From Promethearchaeum syntrophicum (GTDB lineage: Archaea > Asgardarchaeota > Lokiarchaeia > Sigyniarchaeales > Promethearchaeaceae): 32,000 nucleotides of DNA. Where the stretch lies: positions 2,820,001-2,852,000 of the forward strand of contig NZ_CP042905.2 of NCBI RefSeq assembly GCF_008000775.2, read 5' to 3'. The notes below the pieces were generated by a model that did not search any database, had not been told where the DNA came from, and saw only the letters and a program-made list of their open reading frames with translations. Of this stretch, positions 392 through 31,813 are shown piece by piece (position 1 is the stretch's first letter; each line of letters opens with the position of its first letter). The position numbers were made by a program, and so were the translations under genes.

Positions 392-1078
392 TTGCTAAAT
401 CGAATAGATCTGAAGGGGTTTAAAAAGGTTCAAGATGAATACAGAAAAGATCGCTCTAAATGTAAGAAAACATTGGAAGTTAAAGGAAGATGGAAATTAG
501 ATGTACAATATGGTCCACAATTTGAGATAAAACTGGCCACAGAAAGAGCAGGGATCATTACTGTACAAACTGATGAAACCATCATCCTTGGAGGAGGAGG
601 AACAGCAGTACACCCAGTTCATTATTGTATGGTCGGTTTTTGTGGTTGCTTCTCAGCAGCATTTGCTAAATGGGCAGCAATGGCAGATATAGAATTAAAA
701 AAATTAGACATTAGAATTATTGCAGACATAGATTTAACAACGGGATTTGGAATTGAGGATGGTATTGATGCTGTTAATGATTATAAACTTGAAATATATA
801 TTGAAAGCGATGCAAGTGAAGATGAATTAAATAAAGTTCTGGAGTACACAAAAAAAAGATGTTTTTGTATGTATTGTATCACGACACCAATAGAACCTAA
901 AATTGAGATGATAATAGAAACACCTGAAGAAGAGATAGAAGATGCCGTCTTTATTTGTCCTAATTGTTTCAAGTATACAATGGTATTTTTAGATGATAAC
1001 ACTCAGAAATGTTCGAATTGCAATACTATTGGCTATTTTACTCGACCACCCGAATCAGAAGAATCATCTAAGAAATAA
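392..1078 (+). CDS. OsmC/Ohr-family (peroxiredoxin-like) domain fused to a C-terminal CxxC...CxxC zinc ribbon
   Basis: The central segment GGGGTAVHPVHYCMVGFCGCFSAAF plus the later KKRCFCMYC is typical of the OsmC fold with its conserved cysteines. The C-terminus CPNCFKY...(16 aa)...CSNCN is a zinc-ribbon pattern. The start is TTG because there is no in-frame ATG upstream of the domain. Confidence 0.7.
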   Translation: MLNRIDLKGFKKVQDEYRKDRSKCKKTLEVKGRWKLDVQYGPQFEIKLATERAGIITVQTDETIILGGGGTAVHPVHYCMVGFCGCFSAAFAKWAAMADIELKKLDIRIIADIDLTTGFGIEDGIDAVNDYKLEIYIESDASEDELNKVLEYTKKRCFCMYCITTPIEPKIEMIIETPEEEIEDAVFICPNCFKYTMVFLDDNTQKCSNCNTIGYFTRPPESEESSKK

Positions 1079-1115
1079 AAAAGCACATTAGAAAGGAGCA
1101 TTATAATATCAAGAA

Positions 1116-1334
1116 GTGAAACAAATGAATGAAGAATGGCCTTATGTAACTAATAAAGATCAATACGTTATGGATTTAGAAAAAGATTTAAAGAAAACTA
1201 AGAATCAATTATATCAGACTTTAATAAATGCAAATAAAACAGTTAACGAAATTCAAGAAGTTCAGGAGAAATTGAATCGATGTCAAATTGAAAATGCAAA
1301 ATTAAAGCATCAAATTGAAGATTTATCTAAATAA
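1116..1334 (+). CDS. Small coiled-coil protein immediately upstream of the Rab-like GTPase
   Basis: 72-aa ORF with a heptad-like charged/hydrophobic pattern (LEKDLKKTKNQLYQTLINANKTVNEIQEVQEKLNRCQIENAKLKHQIEDL). It ends 34 nt upstream of the co-directional GTPase gene. The start is GTG at 1116 or ATG at 1125. Confidence 0.45.
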   Translation: MKQMNEEWPYVTNKDQYVMDLEKDLKKTKNQLYQTLINANKTVNEIQEVQEKLNRCQIENAKLKHQIEDLSK

Positions 1335-1368
1335 TTTTAATTGAAAAAAAAGGCATGGTTTAAACCCA

Positions 1369-1920
1369 ATGAATGATACTCAAATAGATTTTATCTTTAA
1401 AATAACAGTAATTGGAGATAGTGGTGTAGGAAAAACATCGTTAATTAAACAATATACTCAGAGTTCATTTGAAAATGATTATATTTCTACAATTGGGGCC
1501 CAATTTTCTATATATAATGAAGAGATAGATGGGGGTAAATTTAAGTTATTTTTATGGGATATCGCTGGTGAAAAGGATTTTAAATTCCTACGCGCTCAGT
1601 TTTATACAAAAAGTAAAGCCGCAATTATTGTTTATTCTCTCGAGGAAAATGATCATGGAAGAAAAAGCTTCAAGCACATAATTGAATGGTATAAGGATAT
1701 TAAAGAATATTGCGGAGAAATTCCCGTTATCATTTTTGCTAATAAAGTTGATTTAATTGATGAAAGAAATTTCGATGATACGGAGGTACAGAAATTAGTT
1801 AAGGAAAATAACTTTTTAGGAATTTATTATACTTCCGCGAAAACTGGTAAGAAGGTAACTGAAGCTTTCCAATACATAATTAAATTTCTTTATAATCAGG
1901 CTAAGAATAAGATTTATTAA
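1369..1920 (+). CDS. Ras-superfamily small GTPase, Rab-like
   Basis: G1 is GDSGVGKTS. Switch I is YISTIGAQF. G3 is WDIAGE, where Rab/Ras has DTAGQ. G4 is NKVD. G5 is TSAKTG. At 183 aa it is a single G domain with no C-terminal Cys prenylation motif. Confidence 0.9.
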   Translation: MNDTQIDFIFKITVIGDSGVGKTSLIKQYTQSSFENDYISTIGAQFSIYNEEIDGGKFKLFLWDIAGEKDFKFLRAQFYTKSKAAIIVYSLEENDHGRKSFKHIIEWYKDIKEYCGEIPVIIFANKVDLIDERNFDDTEVQKLVKENNFLGIYYTSAKTGKKVTEAFQYIIKFLYNQAKNKIY

Positions 1921-13421: not shown

Positions 13422-14342
13422 ATGTCTAATGTGAAAAAAAAAACCCCCCATACCATAAAGACGAAAACTTCAAAGAAAACTTCTTCAAATACCAAAAATA
13501 TTAAGGGAAAAAAAACATCAAAAAAATCAACTAAGAAGAAATCAATCCAATCAAAAAAACCAGCGAAGAAAATGGAAAAATTTATCGAAAATAATCGGGA
13601 AACTTCGAAAAAATTAAAAAGTGAGACAATTTTAAACTCTCAAGTTCAAATTTCAAAAAAAACTCATAGGAAAACTAAAGGACCTAATACCGATAAACTT
13701 AAGACTGAAAATAGGGAAGACTTAGTTGCAAGGCATTTACTTAGATTATATCAATTTATCAAAGAAAATGATCCAATTAATGAACAAGAATTACTCGAAG
13801 AAATGGATAAAGGTACCCCCAACGAAGAATTAAGGCTCAAAATTACCCAATTAGAACTTGAAATTGAATCCATTTATGAAGAAAATCATGCTTTACGACA
13901 AAATGCACTTCAAACACAAATTGAAGCAGAAGATCAAATAGAATCTACTGAATTTGAAAATCGTGAATTAAAAGAAAAAGTGAGAGAGATCAATGATTAT
14001 GTCAAAGCAGAATTAGAAAAAAGAGCTAAAAGATTTGAAATTATAATTGAAGATTTACGAGCCAGATTGCGGGGGGCCTTAGAAAAAAATGAAAAAATTA
14101 CTGAAGTAAGTGAGAAAATTGAATATATGCAACAACAAGTAACTTCCCTTTTTGATCAAAATGACACATTAACGAACAAAAACAACAAATTGGAACAAAA
14201 ATTGGGAAATTTAAATGAAAAATTTGAAGATTCGCAACAAAATAACCTGAGATTGGAATCTAAGAATAAAGAACTCCATAAGAAGGTTGAACTTCAAAAA
14301 TTAGTTATAGATGGTTATAAACGAAAAGAAATGAAACATTAA
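13422..14342 (+). CDS. Lys/Ser/Thr-rich basic tail followed by a long coiled coil
   Basis: MSNVKKKTPHTIKTKTSKKTSSNTKNIKGKKTSKKSTKKKSIQSKKPAKK is followed by ~200 aa of heptad-type sequence (ELRLKITQLELEIESIYEENHALRQN...). The ORF track starts at 13332, but the ATG at 13422 avoids overlapping the divergent ino1 ORF. Confidence 0.55.
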   Translation: MSNVKKKTPHTIKTKTSKKTSSNTKNIKGKKTSKKSTKKKSIQSKKPAKKMEKFIENNRETSKKLKSETILNSQVQISKKTHRKTKGPNTDKLKTENREDLVARHLLRLYQFIKENDPINEQELLEEMDKGTPNEELRLKITQLELEIESIYEENHALRQNALQTQIEAEDQIESTEFENRELKEKVREINDYVKAELEKRAKRFEIIIEDLRARLRGALEKNEKITEVSEKIEYMQQQVTSLFDQNDTLTNKNNKLEQKLGNLNEKFEDSQQNNLRLESKNKELHKKVELQKLVIDGYKRKEMKH

Positions 14343-14357
14343 AAAATAAAATTCCCT

Positions 14358-14933
14358 CTAATCAAATTTTTTTTTCCATTCTTTTATCTTCTTAAGCAAA
14401 TCTAGAATGAATTCTTCTTTCTCCTTCTCCGAAAATTCAGAATCCGGCTTAATTTTTCGCTCAAATGATCCTAACTCAAATAAAATTTTATGCCCACCTG
14501 TCAAAACAAATAAATCTTCTTTGGCTTCTTTAATAACTTGACTTAATTCATGTAATGAAAGATTTTTTTTACTTATCTTCTCTTGACATAATTCTAAGAT
14601 TTGCTGTGGATTTTCAAAAGTTTTCTTGTTTGACATTGTTAATATGCCTTTTGAAGATAATTCTTCCAATTTGGAAGTCAGAATGTTTCCCATTGACTTT
14701 ACTTGTCCCATTTCAGCAAGAATTTCAGATTTAAACTTGTTTTCTTCTTGTAACTGATTTTTAAGGCTTTTAATGTTGATAATTTCTTTTTCAACCTTAT
14801 CAATTTTCTCAGTTAAGATATTTAATGTATGTTTCATTTCACCAATTGATTGGATCAATTCTAACCCAAATTTCTGCAGAATATTCCCAAAACTATCAAT
14901 TTTCTCTTCAAAAGTTTTTTGATTTTCTCCCAT
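14358..14933 (-). CDS. Coiled-coil protein divergent from the longin-GTPase gene
   Basis: 191-aa ORF. The N-terminal two-thirds are heptad-like (LNILTEKIDKVEKEIINIKSLKNQLQEENKFKSEILAEM) and there is a short globular C-terminus. The divergent intergenic region to 14999 is only 65 bp. Confidence 0.5.
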   Translation of the reverse strand: MGENQKTFEEKIDSFGNILQKFGLELIQSIGEMKHTLNILTEKIDKVEKEIINIKSLKNQLQEENKFKSEILAEMGQVKSMGNILTSKLEELSSKGILTMSNKKTFENPQQILELCQEKISKKNLSLHELSQVIKEAKEDLFVLTGGHKILFELGSFERKIKPDSEFSEKEKEEFILDLLKKIKEWKKKFD

Positions 14934-14998
14934 ATTTTCATCAATTCCCTACATGATAGAATTATTTTATTACCATTAAATCATTTTTAAAATTATTA

Positions 14999-15868
14999 AT
15001 GATCAAACATGTGAACATCCTAACCCTTGATGGTAAATCCCTTCTTTTTCGTGAATACGGCGCAACTAAAGTTGATCAAGATTTATTGGCAGGATTCATG
15101 AGTGCATTTAGTGGATTTATGAAAGAAATCTCCCGATCTGAAATAAAATCAACAGTTACAGGTAATTCAAAATTTATTTATAGCTTTACAGATCAGATAA
15201 TGATAGTAATTTGTACAGATATTAAAGATAATGAAGAGGAGATATATCCAATTCTTGAGACAATTTTCTCCCAATTTTTAGAAAAATACAGTGATCTCTT
15301 TAAAAATAATAAATGGGATGGTGAACGGACCATTTTCAAAGAATTCAAAGAGAATGTTGATAAAATCGTGTTAGGACCAATAAAAGTTTCAATTTTAGGA
15401 TACGGTGGTGTTGGAAAAACCACTTTAACCAAACTAATTATCGGGGAAGAAATAAATTTAGAATATGTACCAACAATTACTGCAGATATTGCTACTTTTG
15501 ATAAAATGGGAAAACGCAGTATTGTGTTATGGGATTTTGCGGGCCAAATCCAGTTTACCGATTTATGGGACTCACTTTTAAAAGAAACCAGAATAGTTTT
15601 GTTGGTAACAGATTCATCGTATAAAAACGTTCAAGATACCAAAAAAATCATGGAGAAATTTATTGAAAAGGATTCCAATATGTTAATAATTGGAATAGCA
15701 AATAAACAAGATTTACAAAACAAATTATCAACGAAATTCGTTGAAAAGATTTTGAATGTTCCAACGTTCGGCATGATCGCGATAAATCCGAACTATAGGA
15801 TAATGATTCACGAAATTTTGAACGAATTCATTGAGAAGATTAATAAAATTGATGGATTCATTGATTAA
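14999..15868 (+). CDS. Longin/roadblock-like N-terminal domain fused to a Ras-superfamily small GTPase domain
   Basis: The N-terminus MIKHVNILTLDGKSLLFREYG...LLAGFMSAFSGFMKEIS...IMIVICTD has the alpha/beta regulatory-domain pattern. The G domain has G1 GYGGVGKTT, switch I YVPTITADI, G3 WDFAGQ and G4 NKQD. It is a paralog of 28052..29761. Confidence 0.85.
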   Translation: MIKHVNILTLDGKSLLFREYGATKVDQDLLAGFMSAFSGFMKEISRSEIKSTVTGNSKFIYSFTDQIMIVICTDIKDNEEEIYPILETIFSQFLEKYSDLFKNNKWDGERTIFKEFKENVDKIVLGPIKVSILGYGGVGKTTLTKLIIGEEINLEYVPTITADIATFDKMGKRSIVLWDFAGQIQFTDLWDSLLKETRIVLLVTDSSYKNVQDTKKIMEKFIEKDSNMLIIGIANKQDLQNKLSTKFVEKILNVPTFGMIAINPNYRIMIHEILNEFIEKINKIDGFID

Positions 15869-15898: not shown

Positions 15899-17653
15899 AT
15901 GAAAATTAACTCCCGAATCGAGCTTTTGAATTTAGAATCGAGGAATGGAAAAGAAAAAATTTCATTTCCACCCTTATCAGATGAAGAAATAGAGATTATA
16001 AACCCGATTGTTCCTCCAACCTCAGGAATTAGAATGAAAATTTATGAAAAACAAAATAGTACTTACATAATGACCAAAAGGGCACAATACATGTTTCTCC
16101 GCGTGTTTAAAGCTGTTAGTGAAATAAGTAAAGAAGAAATAAATAAAAAAAATCCAGGGGTTCTTTTAGTTTCTGATGATCGCCCCTCAGCAAATTATCT
16201 TATGGGATATTTTACCAAAATTTTATCTGCTGAAGGTTACCAGATTTACTATCAAAAACCTACAGGTTCAAAAGCAGAATCTGAAGCAAAAAATGCTCCG
16301 TTTTACAGTCGCATGAGTACACCTTATGGAAGTGCCAGTGTACTCTTATATGATGAAATCGACTTAGTAATTGTTCTTACAGCTAGTCATAATGATATTC
16401 TTTGGAATGGTGTTAAATTCTACATTGAACGACCAATGCCAATTAGCGGGAGAATAATGAAGAAAATTTCTAAGAAAGCTCTTGAATTAAGGGAAATTTC
16501 TATGGATTCTGAATTTTCAATAAAATCCATTGATGCAGATAAGAAAAATAATGATTATATAATGAATATTGTTCAAGATATTTTAGATCTCTCGATTTTA
16601 GAGGGCCGAAAAATTATTCTCTGGTCATATATGGGTACTGCACCCGAGATTCAAGCATTATTTAAGCATTTAGGTGTAAATATTATTCTTATTGATGAAC
16701 AAATGGAACCTCCCAATCCAACAGTAAATATCAACCATGAAAAGATTGAAAAATTAATGAAAGAAAAAGATGTAAAAATCGCAATTCTTCTTGATTCAGA
16801 TCGAGATAGACTTGTAATTATTCACCACAATAAAGGAACAGGAGAATTTAAAACGCTTTTACCTAATACACTCTATCCTGCAATGCACAATATTCTAATA
16901 AACAAATTCAATCAAAAAATTATAAATGTGAGAACAATTCCAAGTGATCCTAGAAGTGACAAATACTCAAAATTAAATTTTATTACCGGTGTTGGCTATA
17001 AACATTTAGGTATGGTTTTATATTCCGCGATGGGAAAAAAAATTGAGAGGGATAAATTCCAATCAAGCATCTTATACGTAGAAACGTCTCATGGTTATAA
17101 AAAAATTGAGTCGCCTGAAGATATACAGAAAATAATTCTAGATTCAGATATTACAGGAGATAATATTTTACTTGTGATGTGGGAAGAATCAGGAGGGCAT
17201 ACTATAAATATTCTTCAGATTGCCCAAAATGGCAAAAAAATTACAATTAACCCAAAATATCCGGCCATAGGCGATAAATATCCCGCTGAAGCAATTTTGA
17301 TTATCTCAACGCTTATTGAAATGGGATATGATTTATCTGAATATGTTGATCAGAAAATAACAGGGTCTCGTACAATGATATCCGGTGATGATAAGCGAAA
17401 AATGAAAATAGTTAATACTTTTGCAAAGATGAAAGATCAATCATTAACAATAAATAATAGGAGTTATAAAATCGGTACATTTGAAGAAGTGGAAGGAAAA
17501 ATATCAATTATTCATTTATGGAACGAAAACAGCAACATATATTTTAGACCTTCAGGTACTGGTCCAGGGGTTCGTATTTATTATTTCGGTTCAAAAACTA
17601 ATGCAGAAACTGAGCTATCAGAAGTAAAAGAGAAAATTGAAGATATGTTTTAA
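15899..17653 (+). CDS. Alpha-D-phosphohexomutase (phosphoglucomutase/phosphomannomutase family)
   Basis: All four signature loops are present. The catalytic Ser loop is LTASHNDILWNGVKF. The metal loop is LLDSDRDRL (D-x-D-x-D-R). The sugar loop is WEESGGH. The phosphate loop is RPSGTGPGVRIY. Confidence 0.9.
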   Translation: MKINSRIELLNLESRNGKEKISFPPLSDEEIEIINPIVPPTSGIRMKIYEKQNSTYIMTKRAQYMFLRVFKAVSEISKEEINKKNPGVLLVSDDRPSANYLMGYFTKILSAEGYQIYYQKPTGSKAESEAKNAPFYSRMSTPYGSASVLLYDEIDLVIVLTASHNDILWNGVKFYIERPMPISGRIMKKISKKALELREISMDSEFSIKSIDADKKNNDYIMNIVQDILDLSILEGRKIILWSYMGTAPEIQALFKHLGVNIILIDEQMEPPNPTVNINHEKIEKLMKEKDVKIAILLDSDRDRLVIIHHNKGTGEFKTLLPNTLYPAMHNILINKFNQKIINVRTIPSDPRSDKYSKLNFITGVGYKHLGMVLYSAMGKKIERDKFQSSILYVETSHGYKKIESPEDIQKIILDSDITGDNILLVMWEESGGHTINILQIAQNGKKITINPKYPAIGDKYPAEAILIISTLIEMGYDLSEYVDQKITGSRTMISGDDKRKMKIVNTFAKMKDQSLTINNRSYKIGTFEEVEGKISIIHLWNENSNIYFRPSGTGPGVRIYYFGSKTNAETELSEVKEKIEDMF

Positions 17654-28051: not shown

Positions 28052-29761
28052 TTATTTTATCTCTTTGAGTTCATCCAATTGATTTTCTAACCGAACTTTA
28101 ACAGAATTAAGGCGTTTAGTTTTTTCATCAAAAATTTCATCCGTTATTTCTCCTGTGATATTCTGCATTTCCAAATCAAGCAAGTTCTTGTTGACATTGG
28201 CAATCTTGATTTTTAAATCGGTTCTGACATTTTCCGCTGAAATAGGTGATTCTGATGATGTTGCTTGCGTTTTTTCTAATATTGGTTTTTCAGAAACTTT
28301 TGGATTTGACAAAGCATGAGTCTCGACTTTAGGGGTCTTGCTAGGTAATATTGATTTGGATACACCTACAGATGTTTGTGAAGCAGGGCTATTTGATTTG
28401 TTTGTTTTGGTTTGTAACTTCTTTAGCATTAATCCCAGTTGATCTAACTCTTGATTCGGAGGTGCGGGAGGTTTTTGAACTGGAGGTGTAGAAGGTTGTG
28501 GACCTGGAGGCATAGAAGGTTGTTGAACAGGTGGTTTAGTAGGTTGCTGAACGGGAGGCATAGGAGGTTGTTGAACAGGTGGTTTAGGAGGTTGTTGAAC
28601 AGGTGGTTTAGTAGGTTGCTGAACGGGAGGCATAGGAGGTTGTTCAACTGGAGGCATGGGAGGGGATTGAGCTGACGGCATAGGAGGTGCTTGTACAACA
28701 GGTTGTGAAACAGCAGGTTGAGATTTCTTTAAAATATTCCGAATCTTCTGAGCTTTCTCATGAAAATCTTGACTCACGCGATCATCCCCCAAATCTAAGC
28801 TCAAATCTGCAAGTTCTTCAAATATTGACATAGCTAATTCAAAATTACCATTTTCTAACGCTTCTTCAGCTTCAAGCATTTTTTTATCCCGATCAATTAA
28901 TGGTTTGAGGAGAGGTGAGATTTCACCCGACATCTCTAAAATATCACCGAGAATTGTTATCATTTTATCCCTATTTCCAGGATCTGTTGCAATCATAGAA
29001 TAACATTTCATGCTTAAATGACGCTCGATATCGATGATTGGCATCGCATCAGGTAAATCTTGTTTATTTCCAATAACTGCCGTATGAGCCATGGGAGCTT
29101 CTTTCTTAACTAATTCGATAAAATATTTACTTTTCTCACAATTTTCCAGGGTTGAATCTGTAATTAGGAGAACTGCATCAGATCCTTTAATAAAATTATT
29201 CCAGAGAAAACTAAACTGTTCTTGACCAGCAAAATCCCAAAGATGGAAATGTAATTTTCCAATTTTAATAGTTCCAATGTCTCCTGTAATTGTAGGAATA
29301 TGTTCTATAGGAATATCCTCTGCTGTGATAAGTCGTGTAATAGTTGTCTTCCCTACACCAGAGAAACCAATCAAAGAAATTTTAGGTCGCAAGTTTTTGT
29401 GGATTAATTCAATTGTTGGATCAAAAACTTCAAAGGTATCTTCATCCAGTTTTTCATCAAGTATCTCACCAAACATATCCATAAATTCCTTGCGACATTT
29501 CTGGAGTTCTTTTTTAACGCTATTAAATTTGTCGGAAAGGTCAGAAACAAAGAAGAAAATGGTGTTTTTGTTAGGAACTGAAAGATAAGTTATGCGATAT
29601 TTAAAATAGTCATGGTATTGGATACTTTCTGTAGTCAAATTGGAAGCTTCTTTCGAGATGTGTTTTAAAACTTGCTCGAATGCCTCTTCATCTAGAGCTT
29701 TTCCAAATTCACGATTATAAATGGATTCTCCATCAAGAGTTATAAAGACTTGTCGTAGCAT
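28052..29761 (-). CDS. Multidomain small GTPase: longin/roadblock-like domain, Ras-like G domain, helical region, proline-rich octapeptide repeats, C-terminal coiled coil
   Basis: MLRQVFITLDGESIYNREFG parallels the N-terminus of 14999..15868. G1 is GFSGVGKTT, switch I is HIPTITGDI, G3 is WDFAGQ and G4 is GNKQD. About ten PPxPPVQQ repeats follow, and then LLDLEMQNITGEITDEIFDEKTKRLNSVKVRLENQLDELKEIK. The ATG at 29761 is preferred over the TTG at 29776. Confidence 0.85.
   Translation of the reverse strand: MLRQVFITLDGESIYNREFGKALDEEAFEQVLKHISKEASNLTTESIQYHDYFKYRITYLSVPNKNTIFFFVSDLSDKFNSVKKELQKCRKEFMDMFGEILDEKLDEDTFEVFDPTIELIHKNLRPKISLIGFSGVGKTTITRLITAEDIPIEHIPTITGDIGTIKIGKLHFHLWDFAGQEQFSFLWNNFIKGSDAVLLITDSTLENCEKSKYFIELVKKEAPMAHTAVIGNKQDLPDAMPIIDIERHLSMKCYSMIATDPGNRDKMITILGDILEMSGEISPLLKPLIDRDKKMLEAEEALENGNFELAMSIFEELADLSLDLGDDRVSQDFHEKAQKIRNILKKSQPAVSQPVVQAPPMPSAQSPPMPPVEQPPMPPVQQPTKPPVQQPPKPPVQQPPMPPVQQPTKPPVQQPSMPPGPQPSTPPVQKPPAPPNQELDQLGLMLKKLQTKTNKSNSPASQTSVGVSKSILPSKTPKVETHALSNPKVSEKPILEKTQATSSESPISAENVRTDLKIKIANVNKNLLDLEMQNITGEITDEIFDEKTKRLNSVKVRLENQLDELKEIK
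28457..28723 (-). repeat. In-frame 24-bp (octapeptide PPxPPVQQ) tandem repeat region containing a 72-bp near-perfect internal duplication
   Basis: aggttgttgaacaggtggtttagtaggttgctgaacgggaggcataggaggttgtt occurs at 28517-28572 and again at 28589-28644 (offset 72 bp). The whole region is built from ggagg/ggtgg-ttg units and is locally GC-rich. Confidence 0.85.
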
Positions 29762-29864
29762 TAATGATTTCCTCAAAATTTGTTTATTGTAGCAAAATTT
29801 CTATAATAAATACATGTTTAGTTATCCTAAAAAATTTGAGATAATAACATTAGTTTGGAATTTT

Positions 29865-30380
29865 CTATTTTTTTGACATATAGCGGATTAATTTTTTAAA
29901 AACTGGTAATCGATCTCTTTCCATTTCAATCTCACTTTCTTTAATTAATTTATCGTATTCTTTTTGTAACTTTATTTTAGAAAATTCCGGTTTAGTTCCC
30001 TTTTCTGAGGATTTATCTAAAGTTAAAATTATCCGATTAATGCTTGGAAGATATTGGTTCAGATCTACGGTTTTCTGTACTTTACTCATGAAATATACAT
30101 TTTCTCCGAAGGTAAATATAATATTCTCTCGATCTGATTCTAAAATTAAATTATGGATGTCTTGAGTTTCTAATTCCGAGACGAGTTTCTCTCTTTTTAA
30201 AATCAATTCCCATAAAACTGGAGAGATCAGTTTACCAGGAGTTAATTTTGGGATTTTTGAAGCAAGCACTATACCATATTTATTGATGATAGCTGTATCA
30301 GTACCGATCATTTCGAAAATTTGGTCAACCACTCCATCCCAATTTATTTTATTGTCTGTATTTGGTGGATTTGCACTCAT
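29865..30380 (-). CDS. Roadblock/LC7 (MglB-like) domain protein, first gene of the GTPase operon
   Basis: VVDQIFEMIGTDTAIINKYGIVLASKIP...IHNLILESDRENIIFTFGENVYFMSKV follows the Roadblock/LC7 pattern (alpha, then a beta-hairpin 'G..gA.i.d.dG..lA', then beta-beta-alpha). It is co-directional with the GTPase gene and 103 nt upstream of it. Confidence 0.6.
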   Translation of the reverse strand: MSANPPNTDNKINWDGVVDQIFEMIGTDTAIINKYGIVLASKIPKLTPGKLISPVLWELILKREKLVSELETQDIHNLILESDRENIIFTFGENVYFMSKVQKTVDLNQYLPSINRIILTLDKSSEKGTKPEFSKIKLQKEYDKLIKESEIEMERDRLPVFKKLIRYMSKK

Positions 30381-30676: not shown

Positions 30677-31813
30677 ATGGGTGATAAAGACTTAGAGAAT
30701 ATTATCTCGAATATTGGACAGGAAGAATTGGCAGTAGCTCAAAAACAGGCTCAAATTGATAGACTTAAACAGCTGATCGTTAAGCAAAAAAATGAGATGG
30801 CAGAACAGCAAAAAATTATCAAAGATTTAAATAATCGCATTCATAATATGTATGATTTACCCGCCGATGTTGAAGAATTAAAAAGAATGGTAGGTGAAAT
30901 GCGTGCAGAAATCAATGATAAGGACTCACAACTTCAAATGGCATATGGAACTGTTGCAGAGCATGAAGCTGAACTGAGAAATCTAAGATTACAGATGGAT
31001 CCACTATCCAAAAATTTAGAGACTTATATTACTCAAGTCGGTGAAATAAAAGCAAAATTGGCAGAGCAAGAAGGCTTGTTAATGCTAAAAGAGAAAGATA
31101 TTCATGAATTAAAAACTAATTTAAGCAATAAACAGATGAATTTCGATAACATGGAAGAAGAATTTGCTAAAAAAGTTCAAGAACGACTAAAAGAATTCAT
31201 GGAAATCGAAGATAATTATCAAAAAAAAATTACAGAGATGCAGGAAGAACTACGCGAAAAAAGTATGACCTCCGACGAAGCACGTGTTAAAATTAAGGCA
31301 GAACTCCAAGAAGATGCTTTAAAAAATCAAACAGAATTTATGGATAAAATCAGAAAATTAGAATCCCAAGTAATGGATAAGGAAATTGAATCCAAAGAAG
31401 CGAAGCAAAAACTGGAAAACTCATTAAATCAAGTACAAGACATCAAACTAAAATTAGATACTCAAGTTGAAAAATATAATCAACTGCAAAAAGAATATTC
31501 TGTAATTAAGGATGAAATGGATACACGTGATGAATTTTATGCCGATTTAAAAGAATTTAAAGAACAGAATTTAGGTGTTTCATCAAATTTTTCCCGATTA
31601 ATGACTCTATTCGAACATGAACCACTCTTTAAAGCTTTTCTCTTAGTAAATGATGTTGGTGAAATGAATGTTGAAGATCTAAAAAATTCGTTGGGTGTGC
31701 CGAGTATAACTACAAAAAAATATGTCGATCAATTTATTAAAGCTGATTTATTTGTGTTAACCGATTCGGGCAAATTGTCACTTAAATATCCGATAAAGGT
31801 GAAGAAAAAGTAA
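30677..31813 (+). CDS. Long coiled-coil protein with a C-terminal winged-helix-like domain
   Basis: About 290 aa are heptad-rich (QKQAQIDRLKQLIVKQKNEMAEQQKIIKDLNNRI...). The C-terminus is MNVEDLKNSLGVPSITTKKYVDQFIKADLFVLTDSGKLSL, a wHTH-like pattern. An AAGAGG motif lies upstream of the ATG. Confidence 0.6.
   Translation: MGDKDLENIISNIGQEELAVAQKQAQIDRLKQLIVKQKNEMAEQQKIIKDLNNRIHNMYDLPADVEELKRMVGEMRAEINDKDSQLQMAYGTVAEHEAELRNLRLQMDPLSKNLETYITQVGEIKAKLAEQEGLLMLKEKDIHELKTNLSNKQMNFDNMEEEFAKKVQERLKEFMEIEDNYQKKITEMQEELREKSMTSDEARVKIKAELQEDALKNQTEFMDKIRKLESQVMDKEIESKEAKQKLENSLNQVQDIKLKLDTQVEKYNQLQKEYSVIKDEMDTRDEFYADLKEFKEQNLGVSSNFSRLMTLFEHEPLFKAFLLVNDVGEMNVEDLKNSLGVPSITTKKYVDQFIKADLFVLTDSGKLSLKYPIKVKKK

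Follow-up and report, generated by a model that had tools for sequence, protein, structure and literature searches.

Do the small GTPases of Asgard archaea have coiled-coil partners encoded beside them, as the layout of one stretch of the Promethearchaeum syntrophicum genome suggests? Asgard archaea have dozens of eukaryote-like small GTPases, almost none of which has been matched to a partner by genome layout (MK-D1 survey, PMC10933270). In the 32,000 nucleotides analysed here (the window), three GTPase genes each have a coiled-coil gene no more than two genes away (Table 1), a recurrence that the original prediction took to suggest functional coupling, while allowing that coiled-coil proteins may simply be common in this genome. 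The three GTPase genes themselves are real: all match the Pfam Ras/Arf/Roc families above the curated cut-offs. We asked whether small-GTPase genes have an excess of coiled-coil neighbours genome-wide, and whether any of the three pairings is conserved in related genomes. Coupling as a general rule finds no support in the first comparison, whereas the second singles out one conserved pair, the 191-aa protein cc191 and the longin-GTPase encoded next to it; the other two pairings are not conserved beyond the window's own family.

Table 1 Features of the window discussed in the text, with positions counted from its first nucleotide.
Feature	Position	Strand	Length	Description and basis
OsmC-like gene	392..1078			Upstream neighbour of cc72
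cc72	1116..1334	+	72 aa	Coiled-coil ORF between the OsmC-like gene and the Ras-like GTPase gene
Ras/Rab-like GTPase	1369..1920	+	183 aa	Pfam Ras, 140 bits
cc306	13422..14342	+	306 aa from ATG, 336 aa from upstream GTG	Translation, heptads
cc191	14358..14933	-	191 aa	Uncharacterised Asgard family; ORF, heptads, AF2 model
Divergent intergenic region	14934..14998	.	65 bp	AT-rich, between cc191 and the longin-GTPase gene
Longin-GTPase	14999..15868	+	289 aa	Pfam, AF2, G motifs
Phosphohexomutase-superfamily gene	15899..17653	+	584 aa	Divergent member; Pfam PGM_PMM_I, PGM_PMM_II; 31 nt 3' of the longin-GTPase gene
Paralogous longin-GTPase	28052..29776	-	574 aa	Proline-rich region, helical tail
Roadblock-like gene	29865..30380	-	171 aa	Between the 574-aa GTPase gene and cc378
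cc378	30677..31813	+	378 aa	Long coiled coil; heptads 13-58, 123-207, 218-293

For the genome-wide comparison, our own 3,736 gene calls were scored with a home-made, self-trained heptad matrix calibrated to a 1% false-positive rate on shuffled proteins. Across the whole P. syntrophicum genome, 10 of the 65 small-GTPase genes lie next to a coiled-coil gene, where 7.0 would be expected (p ~0.16), and no enrichment of this adjacency appears at any of five thresholds (false-positive rates of 5%, 1% and 0.2%; minimum lengths of 50 aa and 80 aa; p 0.18-0.78). The window itself is exceptional: six of its 27 genes encode coiled-coil proteins and three encode GTPases, counts that fall in the top 0.7% and the top 1.9% of blocks, respectively. 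The idea that small GTPases are coupled to coiled-coil tethers throughout the genome, as in eukaryotes, could draw on this density and on the threefold recurrence; however, the window was selected for its striking look, the genome-wide counts are flat, and two of the three pairings are not conserved outside the window's family. We regard such a general coupling as largely refuted and very improbable: the window happens to be rich in both kinds of gene, and the genome follows no general coupling rule. The null result has a practical use, in that coiled-coil neighbours of GTPases should not be taken for tethers before their conservation has been checked.

At the start of the window, the 72-aa coiled coil was correctly placed: by the ORF coordinates it ends 34 nt before the Ras/Rab-like GTPase gene, and the heptad matrix confirms it as a coiled coil. 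Its orthologues occur in 10 of 61 genomes and lie beside the OsmC-like gene at all nine of nine loci, and the position of the GTPase gene relative to cc72 varies between genomes. cc72 keeps closer company with the OsmC-like gene than with the GTPase gene, in a module of patchy distribution that may have been transferred laterally.

The third GTPase is 31% identical to the 289-aa longin-GTPase. The coiled coil attributed to this 574-aa protein stays below the 1% threshold, and what speaks for it is a weak CdvA-like coiled-coil match (E 9e-4). It was also described as facing cc378 across a divergent region of ~300 bp; a region of that size exists and lies between cc378 and the Roadblock-like gene, which intervenes. 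This 171-aa gene has a weak Robl_LC7 match (E 0.085) and is kept beside the 574-aa GTPase gene in the window's family (f1). The heptad matrix agrees that cc378 is a coiled coil, and the winged helix proposed at its C-terminus finds no match in Pfam. cc378 lies near the GTPase-Roadblock pair only in f1; in families f2 and f3 it stands alone.

There remains the middle locus, where the longin-GTPase gene is flanked by cc191 and, beyond it, by cc306. The latter is, as proposed, a basic-tailed coiled coil convergent to cc191 according to its translation, the heptad matrix and the ORF coordinates: a K/S/T-rich basic tail of ~100 aa precedes two coiled-coil segments (heptads 164-225 and 249-323, numbered on the 336-aa frame), and a 15-bp gap separates the two genes. 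cc306 matches no Pfam or NCBIfam family and has orthologues only in f1. It counts as a neighbour at the level of the family, and nothing observed points to coupling.

The longin-GTPase has a longin domain at ~residues 1-125 followed by an Arf/Rab-like G domain at ~126-289. Its motifs GYGGVGKT, PTITADI, WDFAGQ and NKQD do not vary among 16 sequences; it scores 56 bits against Pfam Arf and 52 bits against Ras (Arf, Ras and Roc all exceed their cut-offs) and 64 bits against NCBIfam small_GTP (cut-off 42.5). In the AF2 model (pLDDT 80.7, pTM 0.75) the G domain superposes on Arf1, Arl1, Asgard ArfR1 and Rabs with Z 16-17 and rmsd 2.4-2.8 across ~145-155 residues. By both its motifs and its G-domain fold, the protein is a Ras-superfamily small GTPase. 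Assignment to the Arf family proper was rejected: the N-terminus is a 125-residue longin rather than an amphipathic helix, G3 is the Rab-like WDFAGQ rather than WDVGGQ, and Arf and Rab structures reach equal Z.

Because the structure-search list for the model was filled by G domains, the longin fold of the N-terminal domain rests on topology and weak profile matches, both of which agree with the fusion proposed earlier. The order of elements is beta-beta-alpha-beta-beta-beta-alpha-alpha (DSSP of the AF2 model: E2-9, E14-19, H27-41, E50-54, E57-63, E67-74, H79-102, H111-125), which is that of a longin; a Roadblock domain would read alpha-beta-beta-alpha-beta-beta-beta. Profile searches return weak matches to the longins of delta-COP, VAMP7 and AP2-sigma, with E from 0.018 (delta-COP, PDB) to 0.5. 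Against Pfam, the window protein matches Fuz_longin_1 (E 0.006) and Longin (E 0.05), as do 9/13 and 7/13 family members, respectively (best 1e-5 to 4e-6), all below the curated cut-offs. The fusion itself is already published: Tran et al. (2024, Commun Biol, PMC10933270) described longin- or Roadblock-fused Arf/Rag-like small GTPases of Asgard archaea, including MK-D1, with the same architecture of an N-terminal longin and then a G domain. No coiled-coil partner is named in that work, whereas here the GTPase has a conserved divergent neighbour; nor was cc191 found as a divergent partner elsewhere in the literature searched.

Of 61 genomes from the order Lokiarchaeales, 51 carry one cc191 gene each. 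Its AF2 model (mean pLDDT 78.9) has a single N-terminal helix spanning residues 3-94 (pLDDT 81-88), followed by a linker that varies and then by residues 109-189, which fold into a C-terminal four-helix bundle. The heptad matrix, at a 1% false-positive rate, finds signal at residues 24-75 and 110-141, which bears out the earlier description of the protein as a coiled coil: its heptads exceed the required 28 residues and go with a long uninterrupted helix. The N-terminal helix bears the conserved motif FGxILQxFGLxLIQxxG, and the bundle carries the signature TGGH...W. In the orthologue alignment, F22, G23, I27, G31, L40, T145, G146, G147, H148 and L151 are invariant and W186 is nearly so (at least 90%), a pattern unlike that of a generic coiled coil.

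cc191 matches no family in the Pfam copy searched, which lacks PF28175, a family precomputed for some of its orthologues. Foldseek against the PDB returned no match to its fold at E 0.001 or better, the best VIA Z, 9.7, was to unrelated four-helix bundles and no better than the noise that helical proteins give, and no hit of the Atlas structure search exceeded TM 0.42. Neither fold nor family matches link cc191 to a eukaryotic tether, and no GRIP, GRAB or Sec2 domain was matched with Pfam or Foldseek. We also considered and rejected an HPt-type four-helix bundle: HPt/CheA-P1 chains score Z 7.6-9.5, within the same noise, and the invariant cc191 histidine lies at a helix start in TGGHKILFE, with no KG after it, whereas HPt domains have a solvent-exposed histidine in an HxxKG motif on helix B. 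A COG3_N match (E 1.3e-4, on one orthologue) and a weak LegC2/C7 match were put down to coiled-coil noise.

The divergent arrangement of cc191 and the longin-GTPase gene had been read correctly, and the ORF coordinates agree on a gap of 65 bp. Two separate archaeal promoters would not fit into this space, so those of the two genes probably have overlapping elements. The gap measures 64-244 nt in most other genomes and 542 nt in one; the block on the cc191 side has been kept within the genus, and one genome carries a 90-nt insertion on the GTPase side.

The two genes are divergent neighbours at 19 of 19 loci from three families and likewise in ~15 further genomes. Together with the phosphohexomutase-like gene downstream of the GTPase they form a triple, adjacent in ~34 genomes of three Lokiarchaeales families, a sample in which related genomes are not independent and which amounts effectively to three families and ~15 genera. 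No break in the adjacency of cc191 and GTPase was seen wherever the flank was sufficient, and the pair is kept at identities down to 53% for the GTPase and ~27% for cc191. Nor was any genome found with just one of the two: four genomes of f4 and five more have neither, and three apparent absences of cc191 are contig-end truncations that cut the GTPase gene. Such joint absence is weak evidence of dependence, since a single deletion removes adjacent genes together. In family f3, a second, Ras-like GTPase gene lies on the other side of cc191 at 17 of ~24 loci. GTPase genes of MK-D1 are generally found outside operons with regulators (Tran et al. 2024, PMC10933270), which makes the conserved pair unusual.

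The C-terminal bundle of cc191 has a distribution of its own: it forms the end of coiled-coil proteins throughout Asgard archaea and is always C-terminal in its long relatives (n=26). One of these 26 is the metagenomic protein P0133, in which the cc191-type domain is fused to a G domain of the Ras family (188 bits against Pfam Ras); another fusion joins the domain to a TrmB winged-helix and coiled-coil protein. Outside Lokiarchaeales, none of 40 loci has a GTPase gene as direct neighbour of the C-domain gene, and the neighbours are housekeeping genes. The domain is thus not GTPase-specific and, outside Lokiarchaeales, not GTPase-linked. In the P. syntrophicum genome, cc191 is the one strong match to an HMM of the domain, and one 581-aa protein matches at E 5e-8; a marginal match to cc72 (E 6e-4) was distrusted. 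We consider the domain an undescribed, Asgard-wide module ending coiled-coil proteins, and one that deserves a family definition.

The conserved arrangement suggests that cc191 may be a dedicated, co-regulated partner of the longin-GTPase, a reading to which we give an even chance. The triple could instead reflect inherited synteny that nothing has disrupted; cc191 would then belong to a different process altogether, as seems true of its distant relatives. This would fit the flat genome-wide counts and the housekeeping neighbourhoods of the distant C-domain genes, and about one-fifth of other adjacent mapped pairs are also still adjacent at this distance (2/9, from only 9 pairs). Against it, gene order around the triple is scrambled: in f3 and f2 genomes, the triple alone is consistently retained out of ~50 window-region genes in the 20-40 kb around the locus. 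The span of three families at such low identities, the lack of any genome keeping either gene alone and the existence of the P0133 fusion also argue against simple inheritance. Moreover, conserved divergent gene pairs are usually functionally linked, and uncoupled synteny would run against this tendency. We therefore hold inherited synteny to be somewhat unlikely.

The triple raises a further alternative. As the phosphohexomutase-like gene is conserved beside the GTPase gene just as cc191 is, the functional unit may not be a switch-effector pair. The 584-aa product contains TASHN (phosphoserine loop), DSDRDR (metal), EESGG (sugar) and RPSGT (phosphate) and scores 43 bits against PGM_PMM_I, above the cut-off, which places it by sequence in the alpha-D-phosphohexomutase superfamily; its 70.7 bits against the NCBIfam archaeal GlmM model fall far below the equivalog cut-off of 439 and mark it as a divergent subfamily. 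GTPase and enzyme might form an operon controlling the supply of sugar phosphates to envelope or glycan synthesis, leaving cc191 a structural protein of this pathway or a bystander that shares the promoter region. The complete set of catalytic motifs favours this, as do the shared direction and 31-nt gap of the two genes, their adjacency in f1, f2 and f3, and the absence of all three genes together from genomes G046 and G059. However, in f4 the enzyme gene stands alone, with neither cc191 nor GTPase gene, so the enzyme does not need the GTPase, and we know of no precedent linking small GTPases to phosphohexomutases. We judge this alternative quite unlikely.

If cc191 is indeed the dedicated partner of the longin-GTPase, it could serve as effector, scaffold or regulator of its nucleotide state. 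A single short promoter region shared by the two genes would switch both on, and cc191 would dimerise through its 90-residue helix and contact the GTPase through either the glycine-bearing patch of that helix or the TGGH...W bundle. On the GTPase side, the fused longin domain would provide a built-in platform.

Several known systems share parts of this design. The MglA-MglB polarity switch of Myxococcus and Thermus, which has coiled-coil or adaptor partners of its own, likewise has a prokaryotic small GTPase encoded beside a dedicated partner gene, and both the Roadblock and the longin fold are platforms for GTPases. MglB, however, is a separate Roadblock protein from the same operon, whereas here the platform is fused to the GTPase, and cc191 is all-helical, lies on the opposite strand and has neither a Roadblock nor a longin fold. 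In SRX-SRbeta, and where the coat-subunit longins of delta-COP and AP sigma act with Arf1, an Arf-like GTPase cooperates with a longin-type domain, as it may here, but these are separate chains of eukaryotic complexes; the domains are fused in the present protein, whose N-terminal domain matches such longins with weak E-values (0.018 to 0.5), and the cc191/GTPase locus has no coat or SRP component.

The GRIP-domain golgins that act with Arl1, and the coiled-coil exchange factors Sec2/Rabin8, are also alike in design: a coiled coil of variable length is combined with a small conserved helical C-terminal domain, as in cc191 next to an Arf/Rab-like GTPase. The resemblance is one of analogy, as cc191 has only 191 aa and no sequence or fold match to these proteins, the Rabin8 helix being a generic long-helix match (Z 7.4). 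By this analogy, cc191 might be a prokaryotic counterpart by design of golgins and Sec2-type factors, a dimer that would bind the GTP form of the longin-GTPase through its conserved terminal domain, and the TGGH...W bundle might be an Asgard-wide cap that recruits long coiled coils to partners or membranes. We consider this unlikely; if true, it would mean that switch-plus-tether pairs in Asgard archaea predate eukaryotic organelles. What the locus offers is a pair that is stable over three families and belongs to a lineage some of whose members are in culture, and with it a candidate partner for one of these switch proteins.

The recurrence of coiled-coil neighbours beside the small GTPases of the window had been taken to suggest a functional coupling between the two kinds of protein. 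The source genome is closed (4.32 Mb, 31% G+C; the window is G000:C1:2820001-2852000), and relatives of the window proteins are named Promethearchaeota or Harpocratesius in source records. Our own gene calls (n=3,736, covering 88% of the genome) include 65 small-GTPase genes, detected with the Pfam Ras and Arf models. Coiled coils were predicted with a heptad log-odds matrix trained on strict heptad windows taken from the same genome, with thresholds from shuffled proteins: at a 1% false-positive rate this returned 209 proteins (5.6%), including cc72, cc306, cc191 and cc378, the window's coiled-coil proteins, named by length in amino acids. Genome-wide, a coiled coil directly adjoins 10 of the 65 GTPases against 7.0 expected (p 0.16-0.17) and lies within two genes in 18 cases against 13 expected (p 0.08-0.11); at five other predictor thresholds, adjacency gave p values from 0.18 to 0.78. 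Of the window's 27 genes, 6 encode coiled coils, which ranks it in the top 0.7% of blocks; its 3 small GTPases place it in the top 1.9%. The pattern is therefore real locally and does not generalise, and a general rule of coupling is very improbable. The window is among the genome's richest stretches for both classes, and may mark a place where eukaryote-signature genes cluster.

Coordinates and lengths in the original prediction were correct when the ORFs were re-read, and all three window GTPases pass Pfam cut-offs. The divergent gap between cc191 and the longin-GTPase is 65 bp, the convergent gap between cc306 and cc191 is 15 bp, and 34 nt separate the end of the cc72 ORF from the Ras-like GTPase at 1369. 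GTPase574, a paralogous longin-GTPase of 574 aa, had been described as facing cc378, but an overlooked Roadblock-like gene sits between them, and they therefore do not face each other.

Features of the window discussed in the text
Feature	Position	Strand	Remarks
OsmC-like gene + cc72 + Ras-like GTPase module	392-1920		OsmC-like gene 228 aa, C-terminal zinc ribbon
cc306	13422-14342	+	
cc191	14358-14933	-	
longin-GTPase	14999-15868	+	289 aa
phosphohexomutase-like gene	15899-17653	+	584 aa
Roadblock-like gene	29865-30380	-	171 aa; weak Robl_LC7 match; between GTPase574 and cc378

The pairings differ in conservation, and only that of cc191 with the longin-GTPase holds across families. Occurrence of cc306 is limited to f1, the window's own family within Lokiarchaeales. 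The arrangement of GTPase574, the Roadblock-like gene and cc378 is likewise retained within f1, where the Roadblock-like gene remains adjacent to GTPase574; in families f2 and f3 the cc378 homologue has neither beside it. cc72, and with it the module formed by the OsmC-like gene, cc72 and the Ras-like GTPase, is confined to 10 of the order's 61 genomes. cc72 always adjoins the OsmC-like gene, with the Ras-like GTPase nearby at a position that varies between genomes. Between f1 and f3 genus g9 the OsmC-like part of the module is 80-85% identical, compared with 53-56% for the longin-GTPase and 66-68% for a conserved 544-aa protein in the same genomes; this patchy occurrence and elevated identity suggest recent lateral transfer within Lokiarchaeales.

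cc191 belongs to a single-copy family present in 51 of the 61 genomes of the order. In all 19 loci with flanking sequence (families f1, f2 and f3), a longin-GTPase orthologue is its divergent neighbour (identities of 54-91% for the GTPase and 29-80% for cc191), and 30 further loci added about 15 genomes with the identical arrangement and no exceptions. Immediately 3' of the GTPase, the phosphohexomutase-like gene is present in the 19 loci and conserved in three families. Within the surrounding 20-40 kb (f3, f2 and distant f1 genomes), consistent retention is limited to these three genes; in a small comparison set of 9 other mapped pairs of neighbours, 2 stayed adjacent. In 17 of about 24 f3 loci (L062-L087; also L053, L054 and L055), a second, Ras-like GTPase lies beyond cc191, at the place of cc306 in f1. 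It shares 27-33% identity with the longin-GTPase's G domain, and its orientation and distance vary.

Genomes lacking cc191 (four of family f4, plus G024, G046, G059, G225 and G289) have no GTPase orthologue, the best matches reaching 29-38% identity or paralog-level profile scores only. In G020, G027 and G056, a contig end cuts the GTPase precisely where cc191 would come next, and no genome carrying just one of the two genes was found among those examined. Because the genes are adjacent, joint loss is weak evidence of dependence. Inherited synteny of functionally uncoupled genes is a possible, if less probable, explanation of the arrangement. That the functional unit is instead the GTPase with the phosphohexomutase is unlikely: although the two are contiguous in f1, f2 and f3, in f4 the phosphohexomutase gene stands alone. 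Its product scores 70.7 bits against archaeal GlmM (cut-off 439) and is remote from every named subfamily, with all catalytic motifs kept.

The longin-GTPase architecture is already known: Tran et al. 2024 (PMC10933270) described it in MK-D1. In the AF2 model (pLDDT 80.7, pTM 0.75), residues 1-125 are arranged beta-beta-alpha-beta-beta-beta-alpha-alpha, the longin rather than the Roadblock order. The N-terminal-domain profile weakly matches the longins of delta-COP, VAMP7 and AP2-sigma, while Fuz_longin_1 is matched by 9 and Longin by 7 of 13 family members, all under curated cut-offs. Structure alignment of the modelled G domain gave Z 16-17 to Arf1, Arl1, Asgard ArfR1 and Rabs, and GYGGVGKT, WDFAGQ and NKQD are invariant in the family.

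The cc191 alignment shows two conserved regions parted by a variable linker: FGxILQxFGLxLIQxxG around residues 22-40, and invariant T145-G146-G147-H148..L151 with a nearly invariant W186. The AF2 model (pLDDT 78.9) has a single helix (3-94) and a four-helix bundle (109-189). No Pfam or NCBIfam family fits, fold searches gave no match above helical noise, and neither this conserved partner nor its C-terminal domain family was found in the searchable literature. Searched with a profile, 1.84 billion representatives yielded only 124 proteins. The distant relatives are coiled-coil proteins of 240-560 aa with the same ~85-residue domain at the extreme C-terminus; one, the metagenomic protein P0133, carries it fused to a Ras-family GTPase. 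Conservation of the divergent arrangement, the shared 65-bp upstream region, the specific conserved surfaces and this single fusion make cc191 a candidate dedicated, co-regulated partner of the longin-GTPase, the best reading and one we hold with moderate confidence. It could act as an effector, a scaffold, or an exchange or activating factor, with sequence favouring none of these; resemblance of the pair to golgin or Sec2 systems would be an analogy of design only.

Members of the cc191-type family occur in 134 of 301 genomes across Asgard archaea. Outside Lokiarchaeales, their context is housekeeping genes, and none of 40 loci has a directly adjoining GTPase. The domain also occurs fused to a protein that has a TrmB winged helix and a long coiled coil. 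Giant Asgard proteins (L109:3790-6777 and L089:6140-9499) combine an N-terminal TrmB winged helix with ~800 residues of coiled coil, that of L109 ending in a cc191-type domain; in Thor-like genomes, a giant protein of this kind is encoded two genes downstream from one with the C-terminal domain, in a fixed context that includes a D-aminoacyl-tRNA deacylase gene. The only other clear carrier in the source genome is a 581-aa protein outside the window (G000:C1:1084740-1086485; domain internal at 373-452, E 5e-8), with no GTPase nearby. From the Asgard-wide spread, the loci outside Lokiarchaeales with no adjoining GTPase and the other fusions, it follows that the cc191-type domain serves generally as a cap at the C-terminus of coiled-coil proteins in Asgard archaea, and the GTPase link is confined to the 190-aa Lokiarchaeales subfamily.
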